This document shows, one piece after another, positions 3,655 to 43,732 of a stretch of 64,000 bases of DNA. Below the pieces are notes generated by a model. The model saw only the letters and a program-made list of their open reading frames with translations, was not told where the DNA came from and made no database searches. Position 1 is the first letter of the stretch. Each line of letters starts with the position of its first letter. The stretch lies in contig JACQQV010000046.1 of the NCBI GenBank assembly GCA_016206785.1, positions 19,512 to 83,511 on the forward strand, in the 5' to 3' direction. This DNA comes from Candidatus Omnitrophota bacterium. Its GTDB lineage: Bacteria; Omnitrophota; Gorgyraeia; JACQQV01. The position numbers and the translations under genes were made by a program.

Positions 3655-4388
3655 TGCTTCTCCTCGAGACGCCCATCTTGAATGGCAAAGACCTTTGAAG
3701 CGATTTTCGCCACGCCCTCGGCGTGCGTCACAATCAAAAAAGTCGTTTTCAGCGTTTCATTCAGCATGACCATCAGACGAAGAATCCCTTCCCCCGTTTT
3801 TGAATCCAGATTCCCGGTCGGCTCGTCACACAAGACGATGTCCGGCCGGTTCATCAAAGCGCGCGCGATGGCCACCCTCTGCTGTTCCCCTCCTGAAAGT
3901 TCATTCGGATGATGATCTTCCCGATCCCCTAAATCCAACTCTTCCAGAAGCGCCGCAGCTTCTTTCTTCACGGAAGAAAAGGCATGCCTCCTCAAGATCA
4001 TCGCCGGAAGCACGACGTTCTCGAGGGCGGAGAGCTCGGGCAGGAGATGATAAAACTGGAACACAAAACCGAGTTTCTCGTTTCGTAAGTGTGCCCGTTT
4101 CTCTTCTGAAAGGGAATAGAAATCAACCCCTTCAAAGAGAACCGATCCTTCCGAAGGCCGCTGCAGTCCTCCCAATAGGTGTAAGAGGGTTGATTTTCCT
4201 GTGCCCGATCTTCCAACAATAGCAATGATTTTTCCGCGTGGCACCTTTAGATCGATGCCTCGGATGACTTGAATTTCCTCCGCAGGACCCTCAAAAGACT
4301 TATGAAGATCCCTTGCTTCAAGAATAACATCCACCGTTTCTCGCACGCTCGGCCGCTCAGGCAACGTTTCTAAGTAAGGTCTATTCAT
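3651..4388 (-). CDS. lolD: ABC transporter ATP-binding protein, LolD-like
   Basis: Walker A GRSGTGKST, ABC signature LSGGEQQRVAIARAL and Walker B IVLCDEPTGNLD. It is paired with an FtsX-family permease. Confidence 0.7.
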   Translation of the reverse strand: MNRPYLETLPERPSVRETVDVILEARDLHKSFEGPAEEIQVIRGIDLKVPRGKIIAIVGRSGTGKSTLLHLLGGLQRPSEGSVLFEGVDFYSLSEEKRAHLRNEKLGFVFQFYHLLPELSALENVVLPAMILRRHAFSSVKKEAAALLEELDLGDREDHHPNELSGGEQQRVAIARALMNRPDIVLCDEPTGNLDSKTGEGILRLMVMLNETLKTTFLIVTHAEGVAKIASKVFAIQDGRLEEKQ

Positions 4389-5562: not shown

Positions 5563-5564
5563 AG

Positions 5565-5702
5565 GAAAATCCAAATACCAAATGTCAAAATTCAAAGCAC
5601 AAAATAAATTCAAAATTCAAATTCCAAAACGTCAACCCCGGTTTTGTCATTTGACATTTGTGCTTTGAATTTATTTTGAATTTTGTGCTTTGTCATTTGA
5701 CA
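5565..5702. repeat. Family A palindromic element (copy 3)
   Basis: In transcript orientation it begins TGTCAAATGACAAAGCACAAAATTC 1 nt after the lysS TAA stop. It ends GAATTTATTTTGTGCTTTGAATTTTGACATTTGG just before lolC. Confidence 0.6.
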
Positions 5703-7184: not shown

Positions 7185-7238
7185 AAGACAGAGTTGGTCG
7201 TAAGATTATATCGCAAGGCAAGATGCGTGTCAACAGAA

Positions 7239-8729
7239 TTAGGAAGTCTGGATTCTGGTAGGTTTCCGCTTCTCTGGAAGAAGTCGCATCAAAAGGGCAA
7301 GACCAAGGCCCAAAACCGTGGCGATGGTGCAGAACCAGGCAAACAGGTCGCCGTGGCGGGAATAGAAGGTCTCCTTTTGGGAAAGAGGAACATCCCACGT
7401 TTGAGAGGCGGTGACAAAGAGGGTCTCCCCTCCTCTTTCCAGATGCCGTAGGATCTCTCCTGTCGGGCCGATCAGGGAGGTATAGCCGGTATTTGTGACG
7501 CGCAGAACAGTTCTTCGGTTTTCAATGGCGCGGAAACAGGAGGCTTGGGCATGCTGAAAAGGGGCTCCGCTTTTCCCGAACCAAGCATCATTCGTCACGT
7601 TGACGAGGAAGTCGGACTCCTTCGCAAGACGGCGCACAAGAGGAGGGAAAATATCCTCAAAACAGATGAGGGTTGAAAAAGTCCCTTTGGGATGGCGGAA
7701 AACCGTCTCCTCTTTCCCCGGATGGAAATCTCCGGTGACAATCCATTCGCGCAGTATCGGAAAGTTTTCCTCAAAAGGAATGAACTCTCCGAACGGCACA
7801 AGATGGAGTTTATCGTAACGCTGAAGGACTTCGCCTTTTCGAAGAAAAAGGGCGCTATTATAGGTCCGGCCCTTCTCAACCCATGGGGCCCCCACCAAAA
7901 GATAGGTCTCGGATTTTTGACTCAACGACAAAAGCCGCTCCCAGAGGTCCTTCTCATCGGGAAGAAAACCGGGGACCGCTGTCTCCGGCCAGAAGATCAC
8001 ATCGGGATGATTGAGCGCCACCCACTCTGTCAGCCGTTCATACTTTTTCATGACAAGATCCTGAACAGAACGGTCCCACTTAAGATCTTGAGGGATGTTC
8101 CCCTGAATCACGGAGGCGCGGAGTGTCGAAGGAGACACGGAAGAAGTGATCTGTTTTCTCCCATAAAAAAAGGAGCCGGAGAAAAGGAGGAGAAAAAGGA
8201 CGATTGAAAAGAAAATGTCTTTTCTCCTTTTCCTCCCTTCCCTCAAAAGCTCATAAAGACAGCCATTCGCAAGCATGACCAGAAACGAGACACCATAGGC
8301 GCCGGTAAGATCTGCCACCTGGATGAGGGGAAGCATGCGCCACTGGGAATAGCCGAGGAGGCCCCATCCGAACCCTGTAAAAAGAGTGCTCCTTAAAAAT
8401 TCAAGAAAGACCCAGAGGGGAGGGATCCAAAGGATCGAATGCCGCCTCAGAAACTTCGTGCCGAGTCCAAAGAGGGCAAAGTAGAGTGAGCAATAAAGGA
8501 CCAGAACGATCGCACCCGCCCATGTGACACGGCCGACCCAATAAAGAAGGCCAAAGAAAAAAGTGAATCCTGTAACGGCTGAAAGCCAAAAGGTCTCTAG
8601 GACGCTCTTGCTTTCGGTGGCAAAGAAAAAAGGGACGAAGGCAAACCACGCGAGGAATTCAAGATCGATCTTCGGGAAAGAAATGCTCAGGAGAATGGCT
8701 GAGAAAATAGAAAGGGCGGCCGCCTTCAA
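7239..8729 (-). CDS. lnt: apolipoprotein N-acyltransferase
   Basis: 496 aa with an N-terminal multi-TM region and a C-terminal CN-hydrolase domain (FWPETA..., LICFEDIFP). The start is TTG at 8729, immediately after the secA TAA stop (TAATTG). Confidence 0.8.
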   Translation of the reverse strand: MKAAALSIFSAILLSISFPKIDLEFLAWFAFVPFFFATESKSVLETFWLSAVTGFTFFFGLLYWVGRVTWAGAIVLVLYCSLYFALFGLGTKFLRRHSILWIPPLWVFLEFLRSTLFTGFGWGLLGYSQWRMLPLIQVADLTGAYGVSFLVMLANGCLYELLREGRKRRKDIFFSIVLFLLLFSGSFFYGRKQITSSVSPSTLRASVIQGNIPQDLKWDRSVQDLVMKKYERLTEWVALNHPDVIFWPETAVPGFLPDEKDLWERLLSLSQKSETYLLVGAPWVEKGRTYNSALFLRKGEVLQRYDKLHLVPFGEFIPFEENFPILREWIVTGDFHPGKEETVFRHPKGTFSTLICFEDIFPPLVRRLAKESDFLVNVTNDAWFGKSGAPFQHAQASCFRAIENRRTVLRVTNTGYTSLIGPTGEILRHLERGGETLFVTASQTWDVPLSQKETFYSRHGDLFAWFCTIATVLGLGLALLMRLLPEKRKPTRIQTS

Positions 8730-11552
8730 TTAGGCACCATGACACTTTTTATATTTTTTACCACTTCCGCAGGGACAAGGATCGTTCCTCCCCACCTTGG
8801 GTCCCTCTCGGTGGTAAGGCTCTAGACTTTCGGGAGTCGCTGCTCGGGCAGAGGCAAAAGGATCCGAAAGTGGCGGCGGAGTTCCCTCCCCTTTCGCAGA
8901 GATCCCCTCGAATCGTGTCGCCTCCGCATGAATGAACTCCTGGGGAACGGTCTCAAAGACGCTTAATACTTTCTCGAGACCGACCGCCCTGAACTTCAAG
9001 ATGTACTCGAGGGCATCTTCTTTGATCCGCCGGATCATCCCATGAAACATTTCGTAGGCTTCATGCTGATACTCCACAAGAGGATCCTGTTGACCATAAG
9101 CCCGCAGCCCAATTCCTTCCCTGAGACCATCCATCTGATAGAGATGGTCTTTCCATTTGGAATCGACCACTTGAAGAAGGATCATCCGCTCATGAGGGCG
9201 CATGAGTTCTTCTCCCAATTCTTTTTCCTTTGTCTCGTAAGCCAGTTTAAACTGCTCTAAAATTTTCTGTTTCGCCTCTCCTCGCTCTTTCTCCTCCAAT
9301 GCCTTTGAAAAAAGGCCGAGCCCCCATTTGGTACGGGCCCATTCCGCGAGTCCCTCGAGATCCCACTCTTCCGGCCGCTGCGCCTCGTTTAGGAAAATGT
9401 CCACCTGTTCCTCGATCACTTCCTCCGCCATTTCGAAGAGGTGAACTTTCAGCGTTTCTCCTTCAATAATCGCCCGTCGCTCTTCATAAATCACCTCCCG
9501 CTGCCGATTCATGACATTGTCAAATGAAAGAAGTTGCTTACGAATCTCGAAATGGTGGCCCTCTACCCGTTTCTGCGCAATCTCGATCGATTTGGAAACC
9601 ATCGCATGTTCAATGGGAGTATTCTCTTCCCATTTGAAGAAATCCATAAACTTTGCGATCCGGTCCGAGGCGAAGATCCGCATGAGGTCATCTTCCAGAG
9701 AAAGATAGAATCGTGAGGAACCGGGATCCCCCTGGCGACCTGAACGGCCTCGAAGTTGGTTGTCGATCCGGCGCGCTTCGTGACGCTCCGTTCCTAAAAT
9801 ATGAAGCCCTCCAAGGCCAACGACCTCCCGATGTTCTATCTCCACCTCACCCTTCTTCTGGATAAGGAGGGAAGACTTCCCCTCTTCACTTAATTTTTCC
9901 TCCTCTTTTTCCCGCTGTTGAATGAGATCCCGAGTCAGAAACTGAGCATTTCCACCGAGGAGAATATCTGTTCCCCGACCGGCCATGTTGGTCGCGATGG
10001 TGACCGCATGCTTCCGACCCGCTTGGGCCACAATCCGGGCTTCCATCTCGTGATACTTTGCATTTAAGACCTGATGGGGAATTCCCCTTTTCTTGAGAAG
10101 ATCGCTTAAGACCTCCGATTTATCAATCGAAATGGTTCCCACAAGAACAGGTCGCCCTTTTTTGTAAAGATCGATGATCTCCTCGATCACCGCGCGGAAT
10201 TTTTCTTTTTCTGTCTTGTAAATAACATCGGGGTGATTGGTCCGGATGAGCGAACGGTTCGGCGGGATGACCACGACATCGAGTTTGTAAATATGTTCGA
10301 ATTCAACGGCCTCGGTGGCGGCCGTCCCGGTCATGCCGGCAAGTTTTTCGTACATCCTGAAATAATTTTGGAAGGTGACCGTCGCGAGGGTCTGGTTTTC
10401 TCGTTCGATCTTTACCCCTTCTTTCGCTTCAATCGCTTGATGAAGTCCGTCTGACCACCGCCGTCCCGGCATGAGTCTGCCGGTAAACTCATCCACAATC
10501 AGGACCTCATTGTCCTTGACAACGTAATCCACGTCCCGTTTAAAGAGGGTGTGTGCCCGAAGGGCCTGATTCACATGGTGGACGAGGTCGATATGGGCAT
10601 CCTCATACAGGTTCTCTACCCCCAGAAGTCCTTCAATCTTGTGTACCCCTTCTTCCGTGAGATGCGACGTTTCATGTTCTTCATCGACCTGATACTCCGT
10701 CCCCTTATGGAGTGACGGGATGAGCCGGTCGATCTTGTAATATTTCTCCGTAGATTCCTCTGCCGGCCCTGAAATGATAAGAGGCGTTCTCGCCTCATCG
10801 ATGAGGATAGAATCGACTTCATCGACAATCGCATAATGCAAAATACGCTGGACCCTTTCCGATTTGTCATGGACCATGTTGTCCCTTAAATAATCAAATC
10901 CAAACTCGTTGTTGGTCCCATACGTCACATCACACCCATAGGAGGTCTGCCGCTCTTGGGACGACATGTCATGTTGAATCACCCCGACGGTGAGTCCCAA
11001 AAATTCATAGATCGGGCCCATCCATTCCCTATCTCGCCGTGCCAAGTAATCGTTGACCGTAATCACATGGACCCCTTTTCCCAAAAGGGCGTTCAGATAC
11101 ACCGGAAGTGTCGCTACAAGTGTCTTCCCTTCTCCCGTCGCCATCTCGGCGATCTTTCCTTGATGAAGCACGATCCCCCCGATGAGCTGGACATCAAAGT
11201 GACGCATCTGAATCGTCCGCTTCCCCGCCTCCCGGACTACCGCAAAAGCCTCGGGAAGGATCTCCTCAAAGATTTCGTTCCTCTTCCTTTTAATTTTCTG
11301 CTTGATCCTCACCCTTTCCTCCGGGGAACTGCTTAAGACAAACGCCCCGTTGAGCTCGTCGATGTCCGGTGCGATATCCTTCTCTTTCTGCTGCAGGATC
11401 GTTTTAAACATTTCTGTCTTAACGCGCAACTCGGTATCGGAAAGAGAAGCGACCTCTTTTTCAAGGGCGTTGATTCTTTGAATGATGGGAGCGACTCTTC
11501 TCAGTTCCCGCTCGTTCTGCGTTCCAATAAACTTTAGTAACTGGTTAAGCAA
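8730..11552 (-). CDS. secA: preprotein translocase ATPase SecA
   Basis: 940 aa. The N-terminus [19 protein letters not shown] aligns with E. coli [20 protein letters not shown]. A DEAD-like motor is present. The C-terminal zinc-binding tail is [14 protein letters not shown]. The start is TTG preceded by GAGGA. Confidence 0.95.
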
Positions 11553-11635
11553 GTTGTCCTCAGCTGCGTATCTCGTGAAGCGTATCTCGTATTTCGCTTC
11601 ACGAACGACGCTTCACGCTTCACGTCCTTTGCGTT
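11553..11635 (-). promoter_or_regulatory. secA 5' leader / M48 3' region. It carries three direct GTGAAGCG repeats and one inverted copy, able to form alternative hairpins.
   Basis: Minus-strand RNA: GUGAAGCGUGAAGCGUCGUUCGUGAAGCGAAAUACGAGAUACGCUUCACGAGAUACGCAGCUGAGGACAACUUG. Confidence 0.4.
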
Positions 11636-12412
11636 TCACTCGAGATTCCCTTCCTCTCGGTTGATGTAGTCTTCAAACCGCATCTTCCCCTCGATCTCCT
11701 CGTGGACGACCCGAACACGGTCTGACACAAACGGATGGGTCCTTAAGTAAGTTCCCGGGGCGAGTTTATCCCGATGGATCTCTTTAAGTTTCTTAAGAAA
11801 ACGGGACATGCCATACGGATCGTAACCGGCGCGCCGCATCGTCTTGACCGCCAAACGGTCCGCCTGCAGTTCATCCCCTCGTGAATAGGCGAGGAAAATC
11901 TGCGTGAAGGCGATTTGGGCCCCCCGGATCGCCTGACGGTTTGTTCCTGTTCCCACGGCGAGCGCCTGGAGAAGGCCATATCCCATGGAAGCCTGAAGCC
12001 GTTTCATCGCATGGCGTGCCGCAATGTGACCGATTTCATGAGCGAGTACACCCGCCAACTCATCGTCGCTTTTGATCTTCTCAAGAAGACCCCGATTCAC
12101 GTAGACGTAGCCGCCGGGAAGAGAGATGGCATTCACCTCTTTAAGATCGAGGACTTTGAAATAATAGAGGAGTTCTTTACGGTCGCCGTGCGCGGCCAAT
12201 TTCTGTCCGATGGTGTTGACACGGTCTTGAGCGGTTTGATCCTCCAGCACTTTGAGGCGCTTCTCCAGTTGCCTCGAAATCTTTCGACCCATTTCCACCT
12301 CTTTGTCGGTCGAGTAAAGGACCCACTCTTCACGTTGGGTGGCGAGATTATAGTAAGAAGTGCTACACCCGGCCTGAAGCAAAAGGGCAACACACACAAC
12401 AAAAATGATCAC
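11636..12412 (-). CDS. M48-family zinc metalloprotease lipoprotein (BepA/YcaL-like)
   Basis: 258 aa. A lipobox LLQAGCS and the HEXXH motif LAHEIGHIAARH are present. Confidence 0.8.
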   Translation of the reverse strand: MIIFVVCVALLLQAGCSTSYYNLATQREEWVLYSTDKEVEMGRKISRQLEKRLKVLEDQTAQDRVNTIGQKLAAHGDRKELLYYFKVLDLKEVNAISLPGGYVYVNRGLLEKIKSDDELAGVLAHEIGHIAARHAMKRLQASMGYGLLQALAVGTGTNRQAIRGAQIAFTQIFLAYSRGDELQADRLAVKTMRRAGYDPYGMSRFLKKLKEIHRDKLAPGTYLRTHPFVSDRVRVVHEEIEGKMRFEDYINREEGNLE

Positions 12413-32017: not shown

Positions 32018-32091
32018 GGGGCTGTGGTGAAGCGGGATCACACGACAATGGCATTGTCGGGTCACGGGTTCGATTCCCGTCAGCTCCACCA
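32018..32091 (+). tRNA. tRNA-Ala (anticodon GGC)
   Basis: Hand-folded cloverleaf. The acceptor GGGGCTG/CAGCTCC carries the G3:U70 alanine identity pair. The anticodon stem is CGACA/TGTCG with loop ATGGCAT. The T-loop is TTCGATT and CCA is encoded. Confidence 0.85.
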
Positions 32092-32515: not shown

Positions 32516-32602
32516 GCCGAAGTGGCGGAATGGGTATACGCGCCGGTCTCAAAAACCGGTGGGGGCAACCCTGTGAGAGTTCGACCCTCTCCTTCGGCAC
32601 CA
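32516..32602 (+). tRNA. tRNA-Leu (anticodon CAA), type II with long variable arm
   Basis: The acceptor is GCCGAAG/CTTCGGC. The anticodon stem is CCGGT/ACCGG with loop CTCAAAA. A 15-nt variable arm, T-arm GAGAG-TTCGACC-CTCTC and an encoded CCA are present. Confidence 0.85.
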
Positions 32603-32627: not shown

Positions 32628-35600
32628 TTAGACAGAATTGAGGTAGGTTTCGTACGCTTTGCGGTACTCCGAACCAATGGGGATGGGTGCAGCCTGAATC
32701 ATATTTCCTTCCATTTTTAGAAATTGAGCCAGTTCCCCCAAATTCCCGCGTGCCTGCCAAGTGTGCTGAACCACAGAGACTTCTGCCGCAACATTCACAA
32801 GAAAAGAGGCAAGATTTAAGGCGTTAGGAGTTGCCGAATCGGATGACCAATTAAAAGAAGGATCAAAAACGACCATTCTGACCTTCGACTGAATTTTCGG
32901 CTTTGCGCCCGGCGTTTTAGATTCCACAAGAGCCAGTCCCGTTTGCATTCGAGGATTCGGCATTGATACAACACCGGAACCTTTCCATAGATTTATATTG
33001 TCACGGGAGGCAATAACCACGACATCCGGACTTTCAAGCAAAGGAAAATCAATATTTTGATCTGCAAATTTTTCCCAAAGTAAATCTTCTAATGTCTTGG
33101 CATAATATCTCGACCGAATGGCGCTGCCATACCACATGCTTGCCTCTTCCTTCATCTCGACGAGAATTTGCTCTCGTGTTTTTCCATATGCGCGGAGGCG
33201 GTATTCAAGGTTTTCAGGTGAAATTCGCAAAAATTCTGCAATCTCCTCGTCGGTCCCTTTTATTCTCAGTTTTTCAAACAGCATACCTTGAGTGACAATG
33301 ACGCTGAATTGCTCGGGGCGCAGAGCGTGTTTCGCCAAATAAGCGTCAATTTCTCCGGAAGTCACCGAGGAATCGTCGATAATCAGGGTATTCTTAAAAA
33401 GACTCTTTCGATTGTCTCGAGGATTTCCGGTAGCGTCCGCCAGATGGTCTAAGGCAAGAGAAAAACTCTCCCCCAGATCTTCCCTTAATAAAGATGAATG
33501 GTAGAGGTGAAATTTGGGTTTGGCATTTCTTTTGAGCTCTTCGCTCGGCGTGCGATCCGCATATTTTCCTTGTGCCATGAGCCACTCTGGATCTCGAGCC
33601 ACATACCGCTCGGCACCGTCCCGAACCGCAATCGTCTCCGGCTGATGGACGATGAGGACTCGGTTGTCGTTCCATTCTCGATGGCTCTTTACTTCGGCCT
33701 CCTTCGACAATTGGTCGTTTCGGCGGTTGAGAATCGCGTTTGCCGGTTCACCGCGCCCCGCCCATCCGGCAATGTTCTCGGCAAGCCACTGCCGTTTCCC
33801 TTTCAGGTCGTACGCGACACCATCATCTCCAAGAAGGACCGTACTTTGATCTCCCAAAGGAAGCTCTCCTTCCAGAAACCATGCCTCCTCCCGTAAATAG
33901 GGTCTCATCCGCCGATCCCCATAGGAATTGGTAAATCTCCAGTAAGGACCGACCCTCGCTGCCCGCCCGAAGTCCTGACTCCCTTCATGGTAAACCGCTC
34001 CCTTTGCAAGGGCAATGTTTCTTCCCTCTTCATCCAAAGCCGGGTTCTGTTCGGGAGTGGTGAGTCGAATTTCTCCCTGATCCGCAATCATGAGCCACGC
34101 ATCCCCTCTTCCGAATCCGGAGACCCTTCGTTCATCCCCTACCTTCCGGATAAAGGCAACGGCGACGAGTGCGCCCGAATCCATCTTTTCGACAAGAGCG
34201 AGAAGGGCGCGGTCTGTTGTCTCATAAACGTCGCGGAAGTTTTCTCCCTTTTCACGAAGGGCATTTTCAAAAATGGAAGGGAGTTTCCGCTTGATCAGGT
34301 GCGCCGCCTCTTCGTCATAATGCCCATCGATCACAGCGATCAAATCTCCCTCAATGTTTCCTACCCTCACCGGATGAACAAGGGTGCGGCTCTCTTGGCC
34401 TTCCCGTCCCGTGCCGATATCGGCCACATAACTGACTTTTCCGCCCGAGACGGCCTCTTTCTCCCCCGCTTCGTACTCCACATTCCAGCTGTACCGACCG
34501 TCCTTAAAGAGCCAGAAACCGTTCACAAACTTGTGGTTTTCCATCCGCCACCGGCCGTCGAGATTATCCTCAAAAATATCGATTCCCCGTTTCAGTTGTT
34601 CTTCCGAATGGAACGGGTATCCCAAAACAGGGTGGTGGGTCTGTCCCGCCCGGACCATCGTCAGTTCTTCGTGTACCTGCTCGAGCGCTTCTTGAATTTT
34701 GGCCTCCATCAAAAGATCCACATCCAAAGGGTTTTTCGTTGCACTCTTGGTTTTACTGAGAATGTGCCGCAGCACCAGATCGGGCCGGAGGAGAACCCCT
34801 CCGATGATATCGTTTTGAGGACCGGGTCCGAGTTTTTGGGTGAAGTGAATCAGATGCTCCCCTGCTTTGACCCGCTGTGCCACGATACTTCCAAAGCCGA
34901 GGTACGTTTCTTCCCCATCTTCCACTTCAAAAATGGTGTTCGTTCCGACAAAGGTCGTCTCGAGAATAATTCTCCCGGAGGAATCCGGTCGGTCCGGCAC
35001 CACCGTGGAGCCGCCCCCCCAGTTGGGGGCATTCGCCACCTCTATGGTTTTTCCTTTCGCCCTGAACGTGATCGGCCGTGCGACGACATTCAAAGCCCTT
35101 CCGGCAAGATGGTGGTTTGTGTAAAGTCCCGAGACGAAAACGTTCACATGGAGGGAACCGATGCCCCGATTAACCCCCGGCGTCGAGTCGTCGAAATGGC
35201 TCGAAAGGACCGTCGCATAGGGCTCGAGCAGATGGTATTTTCCGATATTGCTGAGTTTCGCCAGAAAGAGACTCCCCTCTGTTTCGTCTCCGATAAAAGT
35301 ATTTTGAACGCGGCCCATGCTCAAGCGAACCCCATTTCCGATGTCTGAGATGTTTCCCTCCGTTGAATCGATGAACATCCGGACAAGACGTGCTCTTCTT
35401 CCGATTCTCGCGTATTGAATGCCGGATCCCCAAACGAAAGTCTCTTCACCAACGGTGGTATCGATCAGATGGGAACCGAAAATTTTCGCTCCCTTCCGGA
35501 TAACCGTCTTCCCTTCCAAAATCACGCCCGGGCCGATAACGGCCCCTTCCTCAATTTCAACCTGATTGCCGATGACGGCGGTCGGGTCAATATCGGCAAT

Positions 35601-38600
35601 GGCACCGAATTTCTCCAGAGGATTGACCGTTTCTTCGCCCCCCCTCGGCTCAAATGCTTCCGGAAGATGCTCTGCCGTCAGAATCGGTTCATAGTCGGAC
35701 ACCCGGTCGCGGGGGATCTTCGGGTCGTTTTCAGGAAGTTCTTTGAAAAGGGTCTGGCGGTAATCCGTTTCGGAAACGCCCTCTAAGGCGGTCCTCTTTA
35801 AATCGAGCGCTTCATGGGTCCATAGGCCATTCTCAAATTTCCAGCGGGGGTCTTTCTCTCCATTCCGATATCGCCACGCACCGCTATCGATATGGAGCCG
35901 GTATGCGTCCCGCCATTTTTCAAGAAGGGCGATCCGTTCGTGGTCCTGGTCATCCCTGAATTTTGCCTTCTCCTCTGCAAGCTCCGCTTCCACCAACGCC
36001 TTCCCGGTCTCAAGCATCTCCACCGGAAAATCATCACCCGTTGACTTTTTCTCGTCGGGCAGGGCATCCACCATCTCCTGCATCAGGGTAAAGATTGTAT
36101 CGGGACTGTAGATAAAAAGGAAAGGAACAGAAACCGCTTTCCGGCTCAAACCGAACTTTGCCGCACCCGGAAGTGCCATTCCCCAATCATCCCACGCCGG
36201 TTTCCCCCGAACAGGAGAACCGATCAGGGAGAAGGGCGTCGCATGCGTGAGATTCCGGTTTGCCATGAGCGTCAGGGGATCGGCAGAAGGTTGTCCTCCC
36301 CCAAGGGCGATCCACCGTAAAAACGGACTCAGGGTGGAGAGAGGGTCTACTATAAGATAGCCGTGGGCACTCGATTCTGAGCCGTCGATTCCTCTGATCC
36401 GGACCGGCGGAAAAAGCGCCTTCGGGTCCCGTGGAACAATCCGAATCATCTCCTCTTCCTTAAATTCTTCATAAAGACCGTGCGTGTGCGCTTTAAGCGG
36501 ATTCAGGGTGCCGAGGTAACTTGAATCGACTACGTTCCGTCCCATATGGGAGATCGCGGGGAGAGAAAAACTCTTTTCGACTTTAAGTTTCCGTGTATCT
36601 GGATCAAACCGGAGAGAGACGATTTCATTCGTATGGAGCGCCGAATCAATAAAAGCCTGCTTGTCCGCGTAGAACTTGTAACCGAGCCACGCCTCGCTCA
36701 CTTCAAGCGGAAGCTCGGGCGTCCCTTTCAGGGTTATTTCATGCTCCGTATGCACCAGCGTCATTTTGATATGCCGCAGCCGGTTGTTCCGTCCGATGTC
36801 GCTGTTTTGATAGACGCCGCTTTCGATTTCCGTTCCCCGGCCGACAGTCGTGTTGACCACTCTTGCGCCACTGATCCGGGCTTCCGGCCCGACCCGGGTC
36901 TGGTTCCCGGAAACCGTATAGACCCTTTTTCCGGAAAGATCTTTCCGGTCGAAGGACCAGTCGTCAAAGTTACCGGTTGTCTCCAAAACAGTATCGGATA
37001 AGACGGCGTTGTCCCCAACCAATGCTCCTGAAACAAAACTTGATTCAACAGTTGCCTGAACACCGATCTCCACGGCGTGGTCCTTTGTCGCTTGGATGTA
37101 ACTTCTTCCGATAATCCGGGCGCCCGGAAGAATTGCGACAAACCCTTCCCTCACATCGAAGACCACTTGATCGCCGACGATAGCGGCCCGTTCCAGACCG
37201 ATGATATTCCGCGGATCCCCGAGAATCTTATACCCTCCATCCCGGGCGGTGGCAAATTTTTGGTCTTCGGTCTTTGGTCTTTGGTCTATCTTTTCTCCCC
37301 CATCCCGGGCGGTTGTGGGGCCCGAGGAGCCGCGACGCCTACGAAGTGCGAGTTCATTCTTAAGAGTTTCTATTTCTCTCTCCAACAAAAATTTTGAAGA
37401 GGGTGAGGCGGTTTCGATCTGTGAAGTTAACTGGGCAATTTTGTCTTGCAGTTCCTGGGCTGTTTCTTTCCCTCTTCCTCCATCCTTGGCATGGGTTCTT
37501 TCAGTATCGTCCTCGGCGGCGCCAAAGGGTTCGATGCGAATCCCTTCAACGGACCAATCCTCACCAAATCGCGGCTTGGACCCTTTCCCTTCGACGGTCA
37601 CAACTTCCCTTGCGATGGTTGCAAGTGCCTTTGAACGCAAGCGGGCCGCTTTGACTCTCGCCTTCAGTTCTTCTGTAGGACCGGTGATCTCTGTCGCCGT
37701 TTTAAAAGGGAAGAAACCATTGAAATTTTCGCCTTCAGGAAACGTGAGATAAACGAGTTGCAACTCTATCCCCTTCTCCTCTTTTGAGAAATCTTTCAAT
37801 ATCTTCATCGATTCCTCATAAACCGCCCTATGACGCGGATGGGGATCATTGGGATCGTTTAACAAAATGATGATTTTGCCGCCCCGGCGGTACATCCCCA
37901 AAAAAGTTTTGAGGTTGCTTCTCAGTTGCGTCGCAGCCTGCCGGACGATTTCCTCATCAGGCATTTCCGGGTTTTGGCGAAGGATATCCGTGCCGATAAG
38001 GTTTGGGGGATCGGTTCCCAACCATCGTGCTGCATTTTTTTCTTCTTTTTCTCTTATTTCAGCCTTCCTCAACCGCTTTGTGGACAAGGGGATCGTTTCA
38101 TCCTCGTCTATCTCTGGCATATAAGCCCCGGATCCTGTCGATAGAATCCAGCTCTGAACATCCATTCCATATTTCTTAGACAGATACACCAGGGCTCCTC
38201 CCATGATCGCAATATCATCCGGATGCGCCGCAATCACGAGGAGGGGAACCTTTCCTCTGGAAAAGGTCTTGAACGACTCACGCCCCCACACCATTTCTCT
38301 GGATGAAAAAAGAGGCTTACCCCCTTTGAGAGTCACGGTGACATAGATTTCAGCATGAGGATGCTTTAACCCAAACTCCAGGGCATGCGCTGTGTCCGCA
38401 TTTCTCGCCATCAAATGATAGGGGAGGCGGCTATGCTGGCTGAGGTGCGCCTTGATCGCTTTCTCTTTGATCGCCGCGACCTCGTTGGTGAAAGGAACGA
38501 CCAGATTAAACCGACCTTGAACCTCAAGAGATTTGTAAAAAATGAAAATGGCCGACCGCCCCTGCGACCCCAGGACTTGTTCAACGTTGTCCCGTAGGAT

Positions 38601-40673
38601 CAGGTCATGCAAAGGTAAAAATACAAAATCGGGACGAAACTTGCGCAGATTTTTCCGAAGGGCCTTGAGGGCCTCCTCGTTCCTGTCCACAGTCATCCGG
38701 ATGATGGTGTTTCCTCTCTGTTCAAAAGCACCGATAAGGTTTCCTGCATAGAAATCAGGATCCCATGCTTTCAACTGGACAACAGCCACTTTTTTATCTT
38801 GAGGAATCGAGAATTGATGAACCCCTTCCACCTCCCGATCACCCAGAAGCACCTTCAGGTTTTCTTCCAACATCCTTCTCACACGACTTACGGTTAATTC
38901 CTTCTCCCCTCCCTCTTTGGCATACTTCTGTCCCAGCTGTCTCCCCTGCCCATCCTGGGCTGCTCCTCTTTCTAAATCACCCTTCAAGAAGCGCGGGACA
39001 CCCCGTTCGAGGGCGGGGAGCTGGCGAAGGTTTTCATCGGCAGGCGTGGCAGGCTTTGCCTTTTCTTTCAGGATCTCGTGATAAAGTTCAAGGTTTGAAG
39101 GCTGCGTAATTTTAGGAGCGATGACCATGTAGGAATAGTTCTGCTCCCTTAGAAGTCTCGTGATCTGAGCCGTATGAAAACCTCCTGCAATAAGGACCAC
39201 CACATCGACATGTTCCCCATTCATCTTTGAGATGGCATTTTCCACGAGGGCATTATCCCGCTTCATCCCGGTTTCATAAAAAGACTCCAGAAGGGCGAGA
39301 TGATTGTCAATGGGAGAGGTGTCTTCCGGGAAAGAAAGGGTGAGTTTATACTGCTGCATTTTCCCGACGAGAAATTTCTTCCACCCCTTAATGGGGAAGC
39401 CTTGACGATCTTGCTGATACGCATGAAGGTCTTCGGGAGAGAGATTTAATTCCAGAAAATTGAGGAGGATGTCCAGTCTATCGGAGATTTCAGAAAGGGT
39501 TCGTTCGTCATTCGATGTATACAAACGCCCCTTGATCTCTTTTTCAAGGATCTTTCCCTCTCGAAAAAGTTCTACATGGTCGCGGTCTGCATACAGAAGG
39601 ATATAGTCGATATAGAGGTCAAGATCCTGATGGCTTCCTTTGGCCGGGTCTTTCTGCTTCAGGATCTCTTTTAAGAAACCGTAATACTCTTTGGGCCCCG
39701 CTTCATTGAGTTTGTATTTGAGCCCCTTCTCTGCCAAGGAGGTGAGTTCTCCTTTTGAAAGGACCTGCGTCAGTTTTCCAATCAAGGCCTGATGCTGGCC
39801 GTCTACCTTCTGGAAGTCGATTTTCTTCTCTAAGACCGAGGCCTCGAGGAAATTCTTGAAGTTGGGATAGCGGGAAAGATCGACCTTTTCGCTAAGGGCC
39901 ACTCCTCCTAAATACTGGTAGTACTCAACCGCCTGCCCCTTCCCTTCCTCATACGCATATTTCTCACGCTCAAGTTCCTTGAGCCTCGGAGAAAAGAGGT
40001 TCACTTTGAGTGTCTCGACGATCGCCTTGACCGACCGTGCCACCTTAAGGGCTTTTTCTTTAAAGGCATCCACCTTAAAGAAAATATCGAGATTTTTGTC
40101 ATAGAGCTCTTCATCTTCAATCCCCCAGAGGGTGATCGGGTTATCCGATGTGATATCGAGATACTCCTCCCCTGAGATCTTTCCCGCCTTGAGGTATTTC
40201 TCAGCCACTTCAAGGCGCTTTTCTTTACTCGCTTCGGACCTTAGGAACGAAAGACTGGTATCTCCGCTTCCTCCTTCCACCAAGATGAGGCGGAGTCCGT
40301 TTTGTTTGATCAGTTTGTCGAGGATGTTGGCGAGGTTCTTTTGGGCTTCGTAATGAACATGGACATCTTGGATATGGATGACAAGGGGTTTTGGATTTCC
40401 CTGGTAGGTTTCGGAGATGCGGCCATATTCAGGGGGGACCTGAACCGCCTGGACCAGTGTTTTGGGGCGATCCCCCAGAAGACTTAAAGGATCGAGGGCG
40501 GGCTTGGGTGAACCTCTGTTTTCTTCCGGCTTAAATTCTAAATCTTGGGTCTCTCGTTCTTGCTCTTTCTTTTCTTCAACGGACCGGAAGATGCTCCGCT
40601 GGGCGTGGGAGGAAGGAACGATTGAAAAAAGAAAGCATGCCCCTAAGAAAAGGAGGAGGAGTTTCCGTGCCAT
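32628..40673 (-). CDS. giant (2681 aa) secreted multi-domain protein. Domains in order: N-terminal domain paralogous to the 41741..43327 product, a PIG-L/LmbE-like deacetylase, a coiled-coil linker, two left-handed beta-helix (hexapeptide) regions, a PP2C-like phosphatase and an unassigned C-terminal region.
   Basis: This is an uninterrupted 8-kb ORF. The signal peptide is MARKLLLLFLGACFLFSIVPSSHAQ. The PIG-L motifs are VIAAHPDD...NDPHPRH (about 37830..38260). The hexapeptide runs are IGNQVEIEEGAVIGPGVILEGKTVIRKGAKIF and IVGDQVVFDVREGFVAILPGARIIG. The PP2C-like motifs are IDGHYDEEAAHL, FGRGDAWLMIAD and LLGDDGVAYDL (about 33790..34560). The N-terminal 570 aa matches the paralogue (IHIQDVHVHYEAQKNLANIL against IHIQDAHVHYEAQKNLASIL). 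Confidence 0.8.
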   Translation of the reverse strand: MARKLLLLFLGACFLFSIVPSSHAQRSIFRSVEEKKEQERETQDLEFKPEENRGSPKPALDPLSLLGDRPKTLVQAVQVPPEYGRISETYQGNPKPLVIHIQDVHVHYEAQKNLANILDKLIKQNGLRLILVEGGSGDTSLSFLRSEASKEKRLEVAEKYLKAGKISGEEYLDITSDNPITLWGIEDEELYDKNLDIFFKVDAFKEKALKVARSVKAIVETLKVNLFSPRLKELEREKYAYEEGKGQAVEYYQYLGGVALSEKVDLSRYPNFKNFLEASVLEKKIDFQKVDGQHQALIGKLTQVLSKGELTSLAEKGLKYKLNEAGPKEYYGFLKEILKQKDPAKGSHQDLDLYIDYILLYADRDHVELFREGKILEKEIKGRLYTSNDERTLSEISDRLDILLNFLELNLSPEDLHAYQQDRQGFPIKGWKKFLVGKMQQYKLTLSFPEDTSPIDNHLALLESFYETGMKRDNALVENAISKMNGEHVDVVVLIAGGFHTAQITRLLREQNYSYMVIAPKITQPSNLELYHEILKEKAKPATPADENLRQLPALERGVPRFLKGDLERGAAQDGQGRQLGQKYAKEGGEKELTVSRVRRMLEENLKVLLGDREVEGVHQFSIPQDKKVAVVQLKAWDPDFYAGNLIGAFEQRGNTIIRMTVDRNEEALKALRKNLRKFRPDFVFLPLHDLILRDNVEQVLGSQGRSAIFIFYKSLEVQGRFNLVVPFTNEVAAIKEKAIKAHLSQHSRLPYHLMARNADTAHALEFGLKHPHAEIYVTVTLKGGKPLFSSREMVWGRESFKTFSRGKVPLLVIAAHPDDIAIMGGALVYLSKKYGMDVQSWILSTGSGAYMPEIDEDETIPLSTKRLRKAEIREKEEKNAARWLGTDPPNLIGTDILRQNPEMPDEEIVRQAATQLRSNLKTFLGMYRRGGKIIILLNDPNDPHPRHRAVYEESMKILKDFSKEEKGIELQLVYLTFPEGENFNGFFPFKTATEITGPTEELKARVKAARLRSKALATIAREVVTVEGKGSKPRFGEDWSVEGIRIEPFGAAEDDTERTHAKDGGRGKETAQELQDKIAQLTSQIETASPSSKFLLEREIETLKNELALRRRRGSSGPTTARDGGEKIDQRPKTEDQKFATARDGGYKILGDPRNIIGLERAAIVGDQVVFDVREGFVAILPGARIIGRSYIQATKDHAVEIGVQATVESSFVSGALVGDNAVLSDTVLETTGNFDDWSFDRKDLSGKRVYTVSGNQTRVGPEARISGARVVNTTVGRGTEIESGVYQNSDIGRNNRLRHIKMTLVHTEHEITLKGTPELPLEVSEAWLGYKFYADKQAFIDSALHTNEIVSLRFDPDTRKLKVEKSFSLPAISHMGRNVVDSSYLGTLNPLKAHTHGLYEEFKEEEMIRIVPRDPKALFPPVRIRGIDGSESSAHGYLIVDPLSTLSPFLRWIALGGGQPSADPLTLMANRNLTHATPFSLIGSPVRGKPAWDDWGMALPGAAKFGLSRKAVSVPFLFIYSPDTIFTLMQEMVDALPDEKKSTGDDFPVEMLETGKALVEAELAEEKAKFRDDQDHERIALLEKWRDAYRLHIDSGAWRYRNGEKDPRWKFENGLWTHEALDLKRTALEGVSETDYRQTLFKELPENDPKIPRDRVSDYEPILTAEHLPEAFEPRGGEETVNPLEKFGAIADIDPTAVIGNQVEIEEGAVIGPGVILEGKTVIRKGAKIFGSHLIDTTVGEETFVWGSGIQYARIGRRARLVRMFIDSTEGNISDIGNGVRLSMGRVQNTFIGDETEGSLFLAKLSNIGKYHLLEPYATVLSSHFDDSTPGVNRGIGSLHVNVFVSGLYTNHHLAGRALNVVARPITFRAKGKTIEVANAPNWGGGSTVVPDRPDSSGRIILETTFVGTNTIFEVEDGEETYLGFGSIVAQRVKAGEHLIHFTQKLGPGPQNDIIGGVLLRPDLVLRHILSKTKSATKNPLDVDLLMEAKIQEALEQVHEELTMVRAGQTHHPVLGYPFHSEEQLKRGIDIFEDNLDGRWRMENHKFVNGFWLFKDGRYSWNVEYEAGEKEAVSGGKVSYVADIGTGREGQESRTLVHPVRVGNIEGDLIAVIDGHYDEEAAHLIKRKLPSIFENALREKGENFRDVYETTDRALLALVEKMDSGALVAVAFIRKVGDERRVSGFGRGDAWLMIADQGEIRLTTPEQNPALDEEGRNIALAKGAVYHEGSQDFGRAARVGPYWRFTNSYGDRRMRPYLREEAWFLEGELPLGDQSTVLLGDDGVAYDLKGKRQWLAENIAGWAGRGEPANAILNRRNDQLSKEAEVKSHREWNDNRVLIVHQPETIAVRDGAERYVARDPEWLMAQGKYADRTPSEELKRNAKPKFHLYHSSLLREDLGESFSLALDHLADATGNPRDNRKSLFKNTLIIDDSSVTSGEIDAYLAKHALRPEQFSVIVTQGMLFEKLRIKGTDEEIAEFLRISPENLEYRLRAYGKTREQILVEMKEEASMWYGSAIRSRYYAKTLEDLLWEKFADQNIDFPLLESPDVVVIASRDNINLWKGSGVVSMPNPRMQTGLALVESKTPGAKPKIQSKVRMVVFDPSFNWSSDSATPNALNLASFLVNVAAEVSVVQHTWQARGNLGELAQFLKMEGNMIQAAPIPIGSEYRKAYETYLNSV

Positions 40674-40704: not shown

Positions 40705-41718
40705 TTACAAGCCAGCCAAGGTGTTCCGGAGTTCGAGAAGCGTGTTCCTCGCTTGTTCAGAGACATTGATCGAAGGATTGACAAAGTCAGGACCCTCTTC
40801 AAGTTTGGCTAACAGCGCTTTCTCCAGGGCATCGACACCGGCTAGCTCTTCTTTAAAAGGAAGATCGAAGACAAACGCGACCAGCGATGTTATCGTTTTA
40901 AATGCTTCAGCCACCTCTTTCCTCGCAAAAATCTTTGTCAGTGGATGACCACCCGTGCGTTCTTTGACATAGTCATGGGTGCCGCCGGCATAACTCAAAA
41001 GTTCCGGAGGAACGACGATTCCAAAGTCATCCGGGTTCAGATCTACTTCTTCCCCCGTGTGGCGACTGGCGAAGACGTTAAGCGCCTGAATCGCATCGTC
41101 AATATTCTGGGAATCGATCCCAGCGAGGAGTGGAGTTTCTTCCCTCATCGCGTAAGGAAGGAGAACGGATACGAGACCACTTCCCACCTTTCCAAAGGTA
41201 GGATTCCGCCGAATATGCCGCCAATAGTTGACATAGGCATCCGGATTATAGGCAAAATAGGCGAGGTCAAATCCAACGACCTCTGGGGCCTCCTGGGCTT
41301 GCACCTGATTCAGAATAATCCTTGAAAGGGGGCCTTTGAAGGTAGGAAAAATCTCCTGACCAACGGAAAGCCTCTCGATTTCTGTATCAATGGCAGCCAC
41401 TGCTCCTTCAAGATGCGTTGCGAGTCCCACATTTCCTGCTTCTCTGCGAATTGGGAGCTCCTCTGCCAGCTTTCTCTTCTCCCTTTCAAGTAAAGCGATC
41501 TTGACTGCAAGATTCACTCCTCTTTCTCCACCATCTGTGGAGGTGAGGTCATCCTTCAATCCCTTCATCATGCCGGGGTTCTCTTCTGCCATCGAGGGAC
41601 GAAACGTCTCCTGCGTGAGGGCATACCCCCAGGCGGGGAGAATCGCCGTCAGCGTAAAGCATACGCCGATAAAAAATGACGCTCTTCTTTGAATTCCTTT
41701 CTGTGCGTTCTCTTTCAT
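40705..41718 (-). CDS. secreted protein of unknown function (337 aa), middle gene of the giant-protein operon
   Basis: The N-terminal signal/anchor is RRASFFIGVCFTLTAILPAWGYA. It lies 22 nt after the upstream gene and 31 nt before the giant gene. No motif was recognised. Confidence 0.5.
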   Translation of the reverse strand: MKENAQKGIQRRASFFIGVCFTLTAILPAWGYALTQETFRPSMAEENPGMMKGLKDDLTSTDGGERGVNLAVKIALLEREKRKLAEELPIRREAGNVGLATHLEGAVAAIDTEIERLSVGQEIFPTFKGPLSRIILNQVQAQEAPEVVGFDLAYFAYNPDAYVNYWRHIRRNPTFGKVGSGLVSVLLPYAMREETPLLAGIDSQNIDDAIQALNVFASRHTGEEVDLNPDDFGIVVPPELLSYAGGTHDYVKERTGGHPLTKIFARKEVAEAFKTITSLVAFVFDLPFKEELAGVDALEKALLAKLEEGPDFVNPSINVSEQARNTLLELRNTLAGL

Positions 41719-41740: not shown

Positions 41741-43327
41741 TTATTCAACCAATCCTTCCGATCTTTGTCTGACCACAGAGTAGTAAAGTTCCGGATTCCC
41801 GGCTTCCGTAATCCTCGGGGAGATCACGATGTAAGAAGTCTTTTTATCCTTGAGAATCTGGGTAAGCCCCGGCGTATGAAATCCACCCGTGATGAGTACG
41901 GCAAACCGGACATGCTCCTTGTCCATCTGTTTGAGAGAATTCTCGACAAAGGCGATATCACGCTCCTGTGCGACGTCGTAAAAATGATCCAATGCCTTCA
42001 TATGGCTGTCGATCTCCGCGGAGCCTTCCGGAAGGGATACGGCGAGACGGTGTTCAACGCTTTTTATCTCAAGGAAAGGTAGAAAGGTTTTTACGGAAAA
42101 GCGAAGGCGGTTCTCGTGATACGTGGTATAGTCATCCGGTGAGATTTTTAGCTGAAGAAGATTGGATAAGAGTTTCAGGTGTTTTGCGATAGAGACCAGT
42201 TGCCGTTCATCCTCGGAGCGGACAAGTGTCTCACGAATCGCCTCTTCCAAGCGGTCCCCCTCTTTGAAAAGTTCCGAGTGATGAATGTCGCTATAGAGGG
42301 AAAGATAAGTGACGTACTTTTCAAGATTCTGCGCCTCTTTGAGGGATACCTCCTTTTGAGTCGCCAAGGTCTTGAGCGCTTCATAATACTCTTTCTGAGA
42401 AAGGGTTCCTTCTTTAAAGGCGAGACTTTGATCGACAAAGGATTCCATCTCGAGGTCACTGAGCTTTTCCGTCAAGGTCTTCATGATCGCGTCCCGCTCA
42501 TCATCCACCTTCTCAAAATCGATCTCTTTCTCGATAGCGGAAGCCTTGAGGAGCCGCTCGACATTCGGAGTCCCTTCCGGCGATTTAAGGGAAGCGAGAT
42601 ATTGGTAATACTCCACCAGTTCCATCTGTTCGGCATCATACGCCTCGCGCTTCCTTTCCAGCTCCCGGAGTGAAGGGTTGTAGATATTCTGTTTTAAGGT
42701 CTCAACGACCCGACGGATCCCCTCGACATTCTCGAGGGCGTTCTTCTTAAACTTCTCCACTTCCATAAAGGTGCGGAAATTCTCTTTGTAAAGTTCGGGG
42801 TCTTCGATCCCCTGCCGGATCATCGGATAATCGCTCACCAGTTCCAGATATTCGTCTCCAGACAAGAGTCCTTTCTTAAGATACCGTTCCGCCACCTCCT
42901 CGCGCGCCTTTTTCGAAGCGAGTTTTCGAAAAGAGGAGAGTTCTCCCCGGCGCTTTCCCCCTTCGACGAGAACCAGTTTCAATTGATTATTTCGGATGAG
43001 AGACTCCAGAATTGAGGCGAGATTTTTCTGCGCTTCATAGTGAACATGGGCATCCTGAATATGGATGATCGTTTTGTCCGAGTTTCCCTCATAGGCATCG
43101 ATGATTCTTCCATGCTGTTCGGGAATCTGGAGGGCGTTAAAAAGGACGGGTCTTGGGAGATGAAGCGCCGAAGGAGGAGCTTCAACCTTTGCAACCTCTT
43201 CAGTCTTCTTGACCTGTTGAAAAATGCTTCGTGAAGGTGGCTCCGCCCATACGGTCGATACAATCCCTAACAAGACGATAAGTAATTTTTGAATCACATG
43301 GCGGGTCCTGTCTCGGCGCTTTCCCAT
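41741..43327 (-). CDS. secreted protein (~530 aa) paralogous to the N-terminal domain of the giant protein; function unknown
   Basis: The start was trimmed to MGKRRDRTRHVIQKLLIVLLGIVSTVWA (signal peptide). It is collinear with giant-protein residues ~60-570. Shared blocks are IHIQDAHVHYEAQKNLASIL, LVLVEGG and VLITGGFHTPGLTQIL (against VVLIAGGFHTAQITRLL). Confidence 0.6.
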   Translation of the reverse strand: MGKRRDRTRHVIQKLLIVLLGIVSTVWAEPPSRSIFQQVKKTEEVAKVEAPPSALHLPRPVLFNALQIPEQHGRIIDAYEGNSDKTIIHIQDAHVHYEAQKNLASILESLIRNNQLKLVLVEGGKRRGELSSFRKLASKKAREEVAERYLKKGLLSGDEYLELVSDYPMIRQGIEDPELYKENFRTFMEVEKFKKNALENVEGIRRVVETLKQNIYNPSLRELERKREAYDAEQMELVEYYQYLASLKSPEGTPNVERLLKASAIEKEIDFEKVDDERDAIMKTLTEKLSDLEMESFVDQSLAFKEGTLSQKEYYEALKTLATQKEVSLKEAQNLEKYVTYLSLYSDIHHSELFKEGDRLEEAIRETLVRSEDERQLVSIAKHLKLLSNLLQLKISPDDYTTYHENRLRFSVKTFLPFLEIKSVEHRLAVSLPEGSAEIDSHMKALDHFYDVAQERDIAFVENSLKQMDKEHVRFAVLITGGFHTPGLTQILKDKKTSYIVISPRITEAGNPELYYSVVRQRSEGLVE

Positions 43328-43732
43328 TCCTTCTCGCTCCACCACTCCCCCAGTGGGGCGGACGGAAAGTGCTGTGGCCCCTTCCGCTCGTCGGAATGGG
43401 AGCCCTTGCGCCTCGCCACCCGCCATCAGCATCCTATTTTCTCTTTCCTCTATTCTATAGTTCTCTCTCATTTTTTTCACGAAGAGGGTCGCGAGGTGGG
43501 TTTAGGTTGGGAAGGATGGGGGTCCAGGCCCAAACCCTATCCCACCTGCGCGTCCCAAGTGTTTATAAAAGTTCTAAAGAAAGTGGGTAAAAAAATAACC
43601 CCCGATCCTGTGACAAGTATATCATTAGGAAGAGGGATTGTCAAGGGTTATAGGAGCTATCTAAATTTTATGTAACTATAATGTTTACAATATATTAGTT
43701 TAAACTAAAATCAACATTTTGCTTCGACTAAC

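Follow-up and report, generated by a model that had tools for sequence, protein, structure and literature searches.

The DNA analysed in this study (the window; 64,000 nucleotides, positions 19,512 to 83,511 of contig JACQQV010000046.1) comes from a metagenome-assembled genome (MAG) of a Candidatus Omnitrophota bacterium, and on its minus strand it carries a gene for a modular protein of 2,681 residues, referred to here as the giant protein. In NCBI, the identical protein is MBI4437143.1, whose sole annotation is "PIG-L family deacetylase." The genes of the region follow one another in the order T2SSE-family ATPase, DUF212, YkuD, accA, a paralog of the N-terminal module (N-module) of the giant protein, one or two unknown proteins with signal peptides, the giant gene (with a cyclophilin-like gene), leuS, comEA and comEC. 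Positional orthologs of the giant gene were found at four other loci (L001, L002, L003, and L004), and the orthologous proteins have 1,986–3,467 residues. Given that the gene order is conserved in L001–L004, the locus is regarded as a vertically kept core locus and not as an island. L001, with its ortholog at 2876–11782, belongs to another Omnitrophica MAG, and the ortholog P0006 is found at L003:8001-13961. A first-pass annotation of the window had proposed that a PP2C-like Ser/Thr phosphatase module is embedded in the giant protein, and our analyses demonstrate that this segment is a genuine but diverged member of the PPM/PP2C fold. The coordinates of the modules and neighboring features are given in Table 1.

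Evidence for a PPM/PP2C domain

Every PP2C-like motif quoted in the first-pass annotation was found in the minus-strand open reading frame (ORF) of the giant protein. FKDG corresponds to residues 2056–2059, IDGHYDEEAAHL to residues 2115–2126 (window 34296–34331), FGRGDAWLMIADQGE to residues 2187–2201 (window 34071–34115), and LLGDDGVAYDL to residues 2280–2290 (window 33804–33836). The range originally assigned to the module, 33790–34560, is equivalent to residues 2038–2295 and ends ~150 nucleotides before WNDNRVLIV (residues 2334–2342; window 33648–33674), so that this last PP2C motif falls outside it. In an AlphaFold2 (AF2) model, the structured PP2C domain extends over residues ~2054–2344 (window ~33642–34514) and contains an N-terminal beta extension (residues ~2054–2085, GRWRMENHKFVNGFW...) ahead of the catalytic core. 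An ORF of 453 residues is also found on the plus strand at 33987–35348, antisense to the region that codes for the PP2C module and the second beta-helix module; it is most likely spurious, because the minus-strand protein is conserved.

A PP2C profile hit, which the first-pass annotation had anticipated, was not obtained with this sequence alone. The segment matched PF00481 with an E value of 0.051 and 13.7 bits, which is below the Pfam gathering cut-off of 20.3 bits, and no match with PF13672 was found in the Pfam scan or with any family in the NCBIfam scan. Likewise, a phmmer search of the PDB sequences with the segment alone returned no match, and two word-indexed homolog searches, one with the segment and one with a profile of five sequences, were empty, recovering not even the giant protein itself. 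The low direct Pfam score and these empty searches would be in line with a chance resemblance of motifs in a segment that is unrelated to PP2C. The word-indexed searches are, however, regarded as misses of the tool, because an exhaustive search was successful. When residues 2000–2400 were compared by phmmer with 1.84 billion representatives at a library-wide E value of ≤1e-3, 72 proteins were matched. Among them are the long proteins P0002, P0003, and P0004, which are ~43% identical to the query across all 400 residues, and dozens of stand-alone proteins of ~250 residues, of which the best stand-alone PP2C was matched at 3.5e-13. Membership in PF00481 was confirmed for all 38 stand-alone matches that were scanned, the best at 2.9e-67.

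The orthologous modules point in the same direction. Those of P0002, P0003, P0004, and P0006 scored 57.4, 40.6, 33.8, and 30.2 bits against PF00481, respectively, all above the cut-off, and a profile of the aligned family matched PPM1K (2iq1) at 8.8e-32 and 75 further PP2C chains in the PDB. The AF2 model of the module has a predicted local distance difference test score (pLDDT) of 89.3 and a predicted template modeling (TM) score of 0.87. The best 50 of its 143 Foldseek matches in the PDB (E ≤ 0.001) are all PP2Cs, with probabilities of 1.00 and TM scores of up to 0.79. The L001 row was left out of the alignment from which the model was built; as most of that alignment consists of bona fide PP2Cs, the model and the sequence evidence are not fully independent. 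By homology (exhaustive search, orthologs, and PDB profile search) and by fold (structure model), the PP2C call is right, and chance resemblance, to which we would give a negligible probability, is excluded by the same evidence.

Within the PPM/PP2C family (PF00481), the closest solved structures are human PPM1K (2iq1 and 4da1) and PPM1A (1a6q), and the closest sequences are stand-alone bacterial PrpC/Stp-like enzymes of ~250 residues, some of them from Patescibacteria. The module shares with these proteins the fold, the motif order RxxxE(D), DGH, GD, xxxGD, DG, and DN, the ligands of the binuclear metal center, the phosphate-binding Arg, and the general-acid His. Unlike typical members, it occupies residues ~2040–2350 of a 2,681-residue chain that bears a signal peptide, and it has the extra N-terminal beta extension, Ser in motif I, Gln in the PEHN motif, a Pfam score below the cut-off and no Cys.

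Active site, probable export and proposed site of action

The active-site residues were mapped onto PPM1A (Table 1), with the N-terminal numbering checked by mafft --add and the C-terminal motifs (D146, D239, D282, and N283) placed by motif register and the family alignment. The expected conservation of the catalytic Asp residues was confirmed for the most part: the three Asp that ligate metals directly and the third-metal Asp are all present, while the Asp of motif I is replaced by Ser. In PPM1A, the equivalent D38 binds one metal through water, and in the D38A variant one metal is lost in crystals, kcat is 2- to 45-fold lower and kcat/Km is 5- to 300-fold lower (PMC5390078). Because S2095 replaces the D38 equivalent, we infer from the effect of D38A that catalysis by the module is attenuated or altered, not abolished. 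Comparison of the PP2C module with that of L001, to which it is 75% identical, gave a dN of 0.158 and a dS of 0.816 (nonsynonymous and synonymous divergence, respectively). The ratio of ~0.19 demonstrates that the module is under purifying selection.

The N-terminus of the giant protein consists of MARKLLLLFLGACFLFSIVPSSHA, a putative cleavage site, and then QRS. By inspection and Kyte–Doolittle hydropathy, this segment has the layout of a signal peptide, as the first-pass annotation had claimed, and with a hydropathy of 2.02 it is the only strong hydrophobic span outside the domain cores. A second membrane-like span is absent, and the other Kyte–Doolittle peak, at residues 2157–2175, is a buried core strand of the PP2C domain. 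The signal peptide is retained in every full-length ortholog. The same n-h-c layout recurs in P0002 (ANA/Q), P0003 (LYA/Q), P0006 (LHA/T), L001 (LHA/K), and the upstream paralog. Common to these N-termini are a Pro near positions −5/−6, an Ala at −1 and then RSIF; the remaining sequence differs. A lipoprotein reading of C13, which lies in a lipobox-like LGAC string, was ruled out, as no ortholog has Cys at this position.

C13 is the only Cys of the giant protein. Its 2,657 mature residues contain none, for which a background of 0.98% Cys in 39 neighboring ORFs gives a P of ~4e-12. No Cys was found in L001 (2,968 residues), P0002 (3,467), P0003 (2,155), P0004 (771), P0006 (1,986), P0026 (2,004), or P0049 (1,111) either, and together these Cys-free long relatives amount to ~17,000 residues. 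The stand-alone cytoplasmic PP2C relatives, in contrast, mostly have two to three Cys. Exported proteins typically avoid Cys, above all where the organism has no system for disulfide formation. Export of the giant protein, also part of the first-pass annotation, is therefore given indirect support by three features: the signal peptide is conserved, there is no other hydrophobic span, and Cys is absent from the mature chain and from the relatives. These features make export plausible and point to, but do not prove, an extracytoplasmic role of the phosphatase.

PP2C phosphatases are classically cytoplasmic regulators paired with kinases. Mycobacterium PstP, Bacillus SpoIIE, and RsbU/RsbP are membrane-linked and combine a PP2C catalytic domain with other domains; this PP2C domain nevertheless faces the cytoplasm, and kinase partners or STAS substrates have been identified. 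In the giant protein, by contrast, the sole hydrophobic segment looks like a cleavable signal peptide at the N-terminus, which would place the PP2C domain outside, and the locus has no kinase or STAS partner. A literature search on exported bacterial PP2Cs yielded nothing relevant.

We propose, with a probability of roughly 0.55, that the module is an attenuated but active PPM-fold phosphatase, which is carried by a Sec-exported Cys-free chain and acts outside the cytoplasm. In the proposed scheme, Sec would translocate the whole modular chain, as suggested by the three features named above. The PP2C domain would still hydrolyze phospho-Ser/Thr with Mn2+/Mg2+ at reduced efficiency, and its binding of one metal would probably be weaker, with Ser at the water-mediated ligand position. 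Its site of action would be the periplasm, the surface, or a partner or prey cell, and it would be one of several activities in a multi-enzyme protein of the envelope or of host interaction, as is typical of Omnitrophota. A conserved and selected PP2C in a chain marked for export would mean either that phosphoprotein phosphatases are used outside the cell or that the rules by which the topology of long proteins is inferred are wrong. Extracellular use, for example against a host or prey, would fit the epibiotic or predatory way of life that is suspected for Omnitrophota, and both outcomes bear on the role of "cytoplasm-type" enzyme domains in the long proteins of this phylum.

Several observations, beginning with the low Pfam score and the dependence of the model on PP2C sequences described above, weigh against this proposal. 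The Asp-to-Ser change in motif I is found in the window protein and in L001. Of 50 stand-alone relatives, in contrast, 49 retain Asp and one has a gap at this position, and Asp is also present in five further giant-type modules. The His of the PEHN motif, otherwise invariant in the subfamily, is replaced by Gln in the same two proteins only. P0006, encoded at the same syntenic locus, has D146N, D239K, and D282G with the fold motifs kept, so that at least one lineage can do without catalysis. In addition, a motif search found no Hanks-kinase catalytic-loop motif in the window or in L001–L003, and no ATP-dependent phosphorylation of proteins would be expected outside the cytoplasm. These substitutions, the loss of one metal from D38A PPM1A and the lack of a kinase motif are all in line with a pseudophosphatase or scaffold. 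The module would then serve the exported chain as a single unit of structure or recognition, with its PP2C fold retained to bind a phosphorylated or acidic ligand, or another module, rather than for turnover. We consider this explanation doubtful. The module retains all three Asp that ligate metals directly, the third-metal Asp, the Gly carbonyl position, the phosphate-binding Arg, and the general-acid His, which is more than maintenance of the fold would need; D38A PPM1A retains measurable activity (PMC5390078); and the dN/dS ratio argues in the same direction.

The composition of the chain also counts on the opposing side. The PIG-L, left-handed beta-helix (LbH), and PP2C modules, as well as the PGM/PMM and amino-acid-kinase modules of relatives, belong to enzyme classes that are usually cytoplasmic and that usually use nucleotide or CoA cofactors or substrates made by kinases. 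The N-terminal hydrophobic segment could accordingly be an uncleaved tether or irrelevant, and the chain could stay on the cytoplasmic side as a fusion of sugar-nucleotide or envelope-precursor enzymes. The PP2C domain would then control phosphorylated partners, such as the active-site phosphoserine of the PGM/PMM-type modules in relatives. Consistent with such a cytoplasmic regulator are the classic cytoplasmic nature of the PIG-L, GlmU-like LbH, PGM/PMM, and amino-acid-kinase enzymes, the housekeeping and syntenic, not island-like, character of the locus, and a 2026 preprint, in which many such proteins are read as facing the cytoplasm (10.64898/2026.06.07.730766). We nevertheless regard a cytoplasmic location as unlikely. 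The strongly positive n-regions, that of L001 especially, favor the N-in orientation; in all orthologs, the conserved RSIF comes after an A-x-A-like site; Cys is missing from ~17,000 residues of relatives but makes up 0.98% of neighboring cytoplasmic proteins; and there is no second membrane-like span to return the chain to the inside.

Other modules of the giant protein

In a Pfam scan of the whole giant protein, PIG-L alone exceeded the cut-off (PF02585; 2.6e-15, 57.5 bits with a cut-off of 28.2, residues 812–957). The beta-helix modules that the first-pass annotation had placed ahead of the PP2C segment were confirmed, with left-handed (hexapeptide) signals at residues ~1131–1220, where the signal is weak, and ~1683–1784. 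In module 1 (LbH1), residues 1131–1220 gave a weak match with NCBIfam TIGR03991 (E value of 0.013). Module 2 (LbH2) matched Hexapep at 0.0011, below the cut-off, and had local GlmU/LpxA/LpxD matches at residues 1683–1784. The two modules are weakly similar to each other (E value of 1e-6). Searches of the PDB with phmmer yielded nothing useful for the mid-module, the PIG-L region, or the region after LbH1. Among the relatives, extra modules are found in P0002 (PGM/PMM) and in the fragment P0004 (an amino-acid-kinase domain).

Table 1. Positions of the giant gene, its modules and neighboring features in the window, and residues of the PP2C module with their PPM1A equivalents.
Feature	Window positions	Strand	Residues	Remarks
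Giant ORF	32628–40673	−		2,681-residue modular protein; source Candidatus Omnitrophota MAG
Signal peptide	40602–40673	−	1–24	MARK / LLLLFLGACFLFSIV / PSSHA, then QRSIFRSV
N-module	38994–40601	−	~25–560	Omnitrophota-wide uncharacterised family
Junction copy 1, AKEGG	38907–38921	−	585–589	Border of N-module and mid-module
Mid-module	38244–38906	−	590–810	No recognisable family
PIG-L/LmbE-type deacetylase module	37494–38243	−	~811–1060	AHPDD motif at residues 816–820
Charged coiled-coil-like linker	37233–37490	−		Three junction motif copies
Junction copy 2, AKDGG	37476–37490	−	1062
Junction copy 3, ARDGG	37296–37310	−	1122
Junction copy 4, ARDGG	37233–37247	−	1143
LbH module 1 and helical region	35634–37244	−	1144–1680
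LbH module 2 and helical region	34557–35633	−	1681–2039
PP2C/PPM module	33624–34556	−	2040–2350	Homology, fold, residues, dN/dS
Junction-related VRDGAE	~33609–33626	−		Directly after PP2C module
C-terminal domain	32631–33623	−	2351–2681	Starts VRDGAERY; no known family
337-residue gene	40705–41718	−		Unknown family; signal-peptide-like N-terminus; between paralog and giant gene
N-module paralog gene	41741–43480	−		579 residues, stand-alone; two genes upstream of giant gene
Phosphate-binding Arg			R2090	PPM1A R33; kept
Motif-I acidic pair			E2094	PPM1A E37; kept
Motif I			S2095	PPM1A D38; changed to Ser
Direct metal ligand, motif II			D2116	PPM1A D60; kept
Gly carbonyl metal ligand, motif II			G2117	PPM1A G61; kept
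General-acid His			H2118	PPM1A H62; kept
Third-metal Asp			D2191	PPM1A D146; kept
PEHN-motif position			Q2209	His in all other members; changed to Gln
Direct metal ligand, motif VIII			D2284 (D2284-G2285)	PPM1A D239; kept
Direct metal ligand, motif XI			D2336	PPM1A D282; kept
			N2337	PPM1A N283; kept

The N-module and the PP2C module co-occur in all full-length relatives, the distant P0026 included. The N-module has at least 172 homologs, which are mostly stand-alone proteins of ~500–550 residues; those with names are nearly all "hypothetical protein" entries of Omnitrophota MAGs, and no Pfam domain describing the module was found among the 172 homologs. The motifs IQDxH..Q, VEGG, and GGFHT are invariant. 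Its AF2 model (pLDDT of 90.5) shows an alpha/beta core into which a large helical segment is inserted, and the best Foldseek matches other than coiled coils were 2rad/3b55 (EreA-like), 6xcq (EreC), and 2g5g (ChaN), with E values of 0.12–1.4 and probabilities of 0.25–0.44. Two of five members matched PF04187 weakly (E value of 0.15). As modeled, the core is possibly EreA/ChaN/TIKI-like. The upstream paralog is 42% identical to the N-module over 538 residues (E value of 5e-136), has a signal-peptide-like segment and RSIF, and contains no Cys; its position is conserved in L002–L004.

The C-terminal domain (residues 2351–2681) had no PDB or Pfam match. The protein ends with AYxxYLNSV-COOH (window 32631–32660), which is kept in P0002 and P0003, while L001 ends with YLNKV; this terminus could be a sorting or secretion signal. 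The domain also contains a helix-turn-helix-like insert of ~65 residues, DEEIAEFLRISPENLEYRLRAYG, at residues ~2460–2525 (window ~33099–33295), which is absent from all orthologs and has sub-threshold matches with HxlR and sigma70_r3 (sigma-70 region 3).

Junction motif, cassette exchange and neighboring genes

The motif [AST][KR][DE]GG marks most of the module borders of the proposed chain. It occurs in four copies, compared to 0.06 expected from shuffling, and none of 5,000 shuffles reached four; no copy was found in 16,266 residues of the other ORFs in the window. The copies and the related VRDGAE fall exactly at module borders in all relatives, and borders of BLAST high-scoring segment pairs were observed at residue 579, near copy 1. 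In P0003, the left flank of the copy at residue 585 is joined to the right flank of the copy at residue 1062, by which the mid-module and the PIG-L module are deleted. In P0002, ~860 residues including PGM/PMM are inserted between two junction copies.

Divergence along the chain is mosaic. Residues 1144–2350 (LbH1–LbH2–PP2C; window 33624–37244) are 75–79% identical to L001 with a dS of ~0.8, whereas for the N-module, mid-module, PIG-L module, and C-terminal domain the synonymous sites are saturated and the identity is 36–69%. In its N-terminal part, the protein resembles P0002 and P0003 more closely than L001. This mosaic is attributed to exchange of cassettes at the junctions between lineages, and for the motif itself, roles as a joint for recombination, as a linker, or as a site of processing are conceivable. 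In the public record, the junction motif, the PP2C module and the N-module family with its >170 proteins are all without annotation.

A more far-reaching, and in our view rather unlikely, possibility is that the giant protein is a Sec-exported "polyprotein" of exchangeable enzyme cassettes, with the N-module, deacetylase, beta-helix modules, and PP2C in this protein and PGM/PMM or a kinase in relatives. The junctions would be recombination joints and perhaps sites of proteolytic release, and the PP2C module would reach the surface or the inside of a host or prey cell to erase Ser/Thr phosphorylation. If true, this would represent the effector logic of MARTX toxins in a nanobacterial phylum, built without any Cys. 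As a functional analogy, MARTX-type toxins are likewise long secreted chains of unrelated enzyme modules whose content varies among strains by exchange at module borders. Unlike in MARTX toxins, RTX repeats, a cysteine protease domain, and type I secretion system genes were not seen (Pfam; the mature chain has no Cys), and processing at the junction motif would be purely hypothetical.

That Ser/Thr phosphatase and cytoplasm-type enzyme domains occur in long Omnitrophota proteins is already published. West-Roberts et al. list Ser/Thr phosphatase domains in the giant proteins of this phylum, and there PGM/PMM and glycolytic-type domains are predicted to be extracellular, with the caveat that membrane spans were possibly missed (West-Roberts et al., 2023, bioRxiv 10.1101/2023.11.21.568195). 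The 2026 preprint gives signal peptides or transmembrane helices for 94% of long Omnitrophota proteins and PGM/PMM as a recurrent module in them (10.64898/2026.06.07.730766). Like those giants, the window protein is from Omnitrophota, begins with a signal peptide and strings together enzyme-like domains of cytoplasm type. It differs from them in having only 2.7 thousand residues, compared to >10–100 thousand, which places it outside the extreme-length class of tens of thousands of residues. It also differs in its conserved housekeeping locus (accA ... leuS-comEA-comEC), where positional orthologs are found across lineages, in having an N-module with an upstream paralog, and in its [AST][KR][DE]GG junctions. 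Term searches of both papers found no family of ~2–3.5 thousand residues at a conserved locus, no N-module with an upstream paralog, no junction motif or cassette exchange, no complete absence of Cys, and no motif-I Ser variant.

With regard to the type II secretion or pilus genes and downstream PilZ genes that mark the surroundings of Omnitrophota giant genes (West-Roberts et al., 2023), the T2SSE-family ATPase is five genes upstream of the giant gene, and in L002 a PilZ gene follows comEC; neither is immediately adjacent. The 337-residue protein had no Pfam match, has a 41% identical homolog in L001, and is conserved in position in L001–L004. It contains a TDGGE string that resembles the junction motif. 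Between the giant gene and leuS, genes for tRNA-Ala(GGC) (32018–32091) and tRNA-Leu(CAA) (32516–32602) are found on the opposite (plus) strand.

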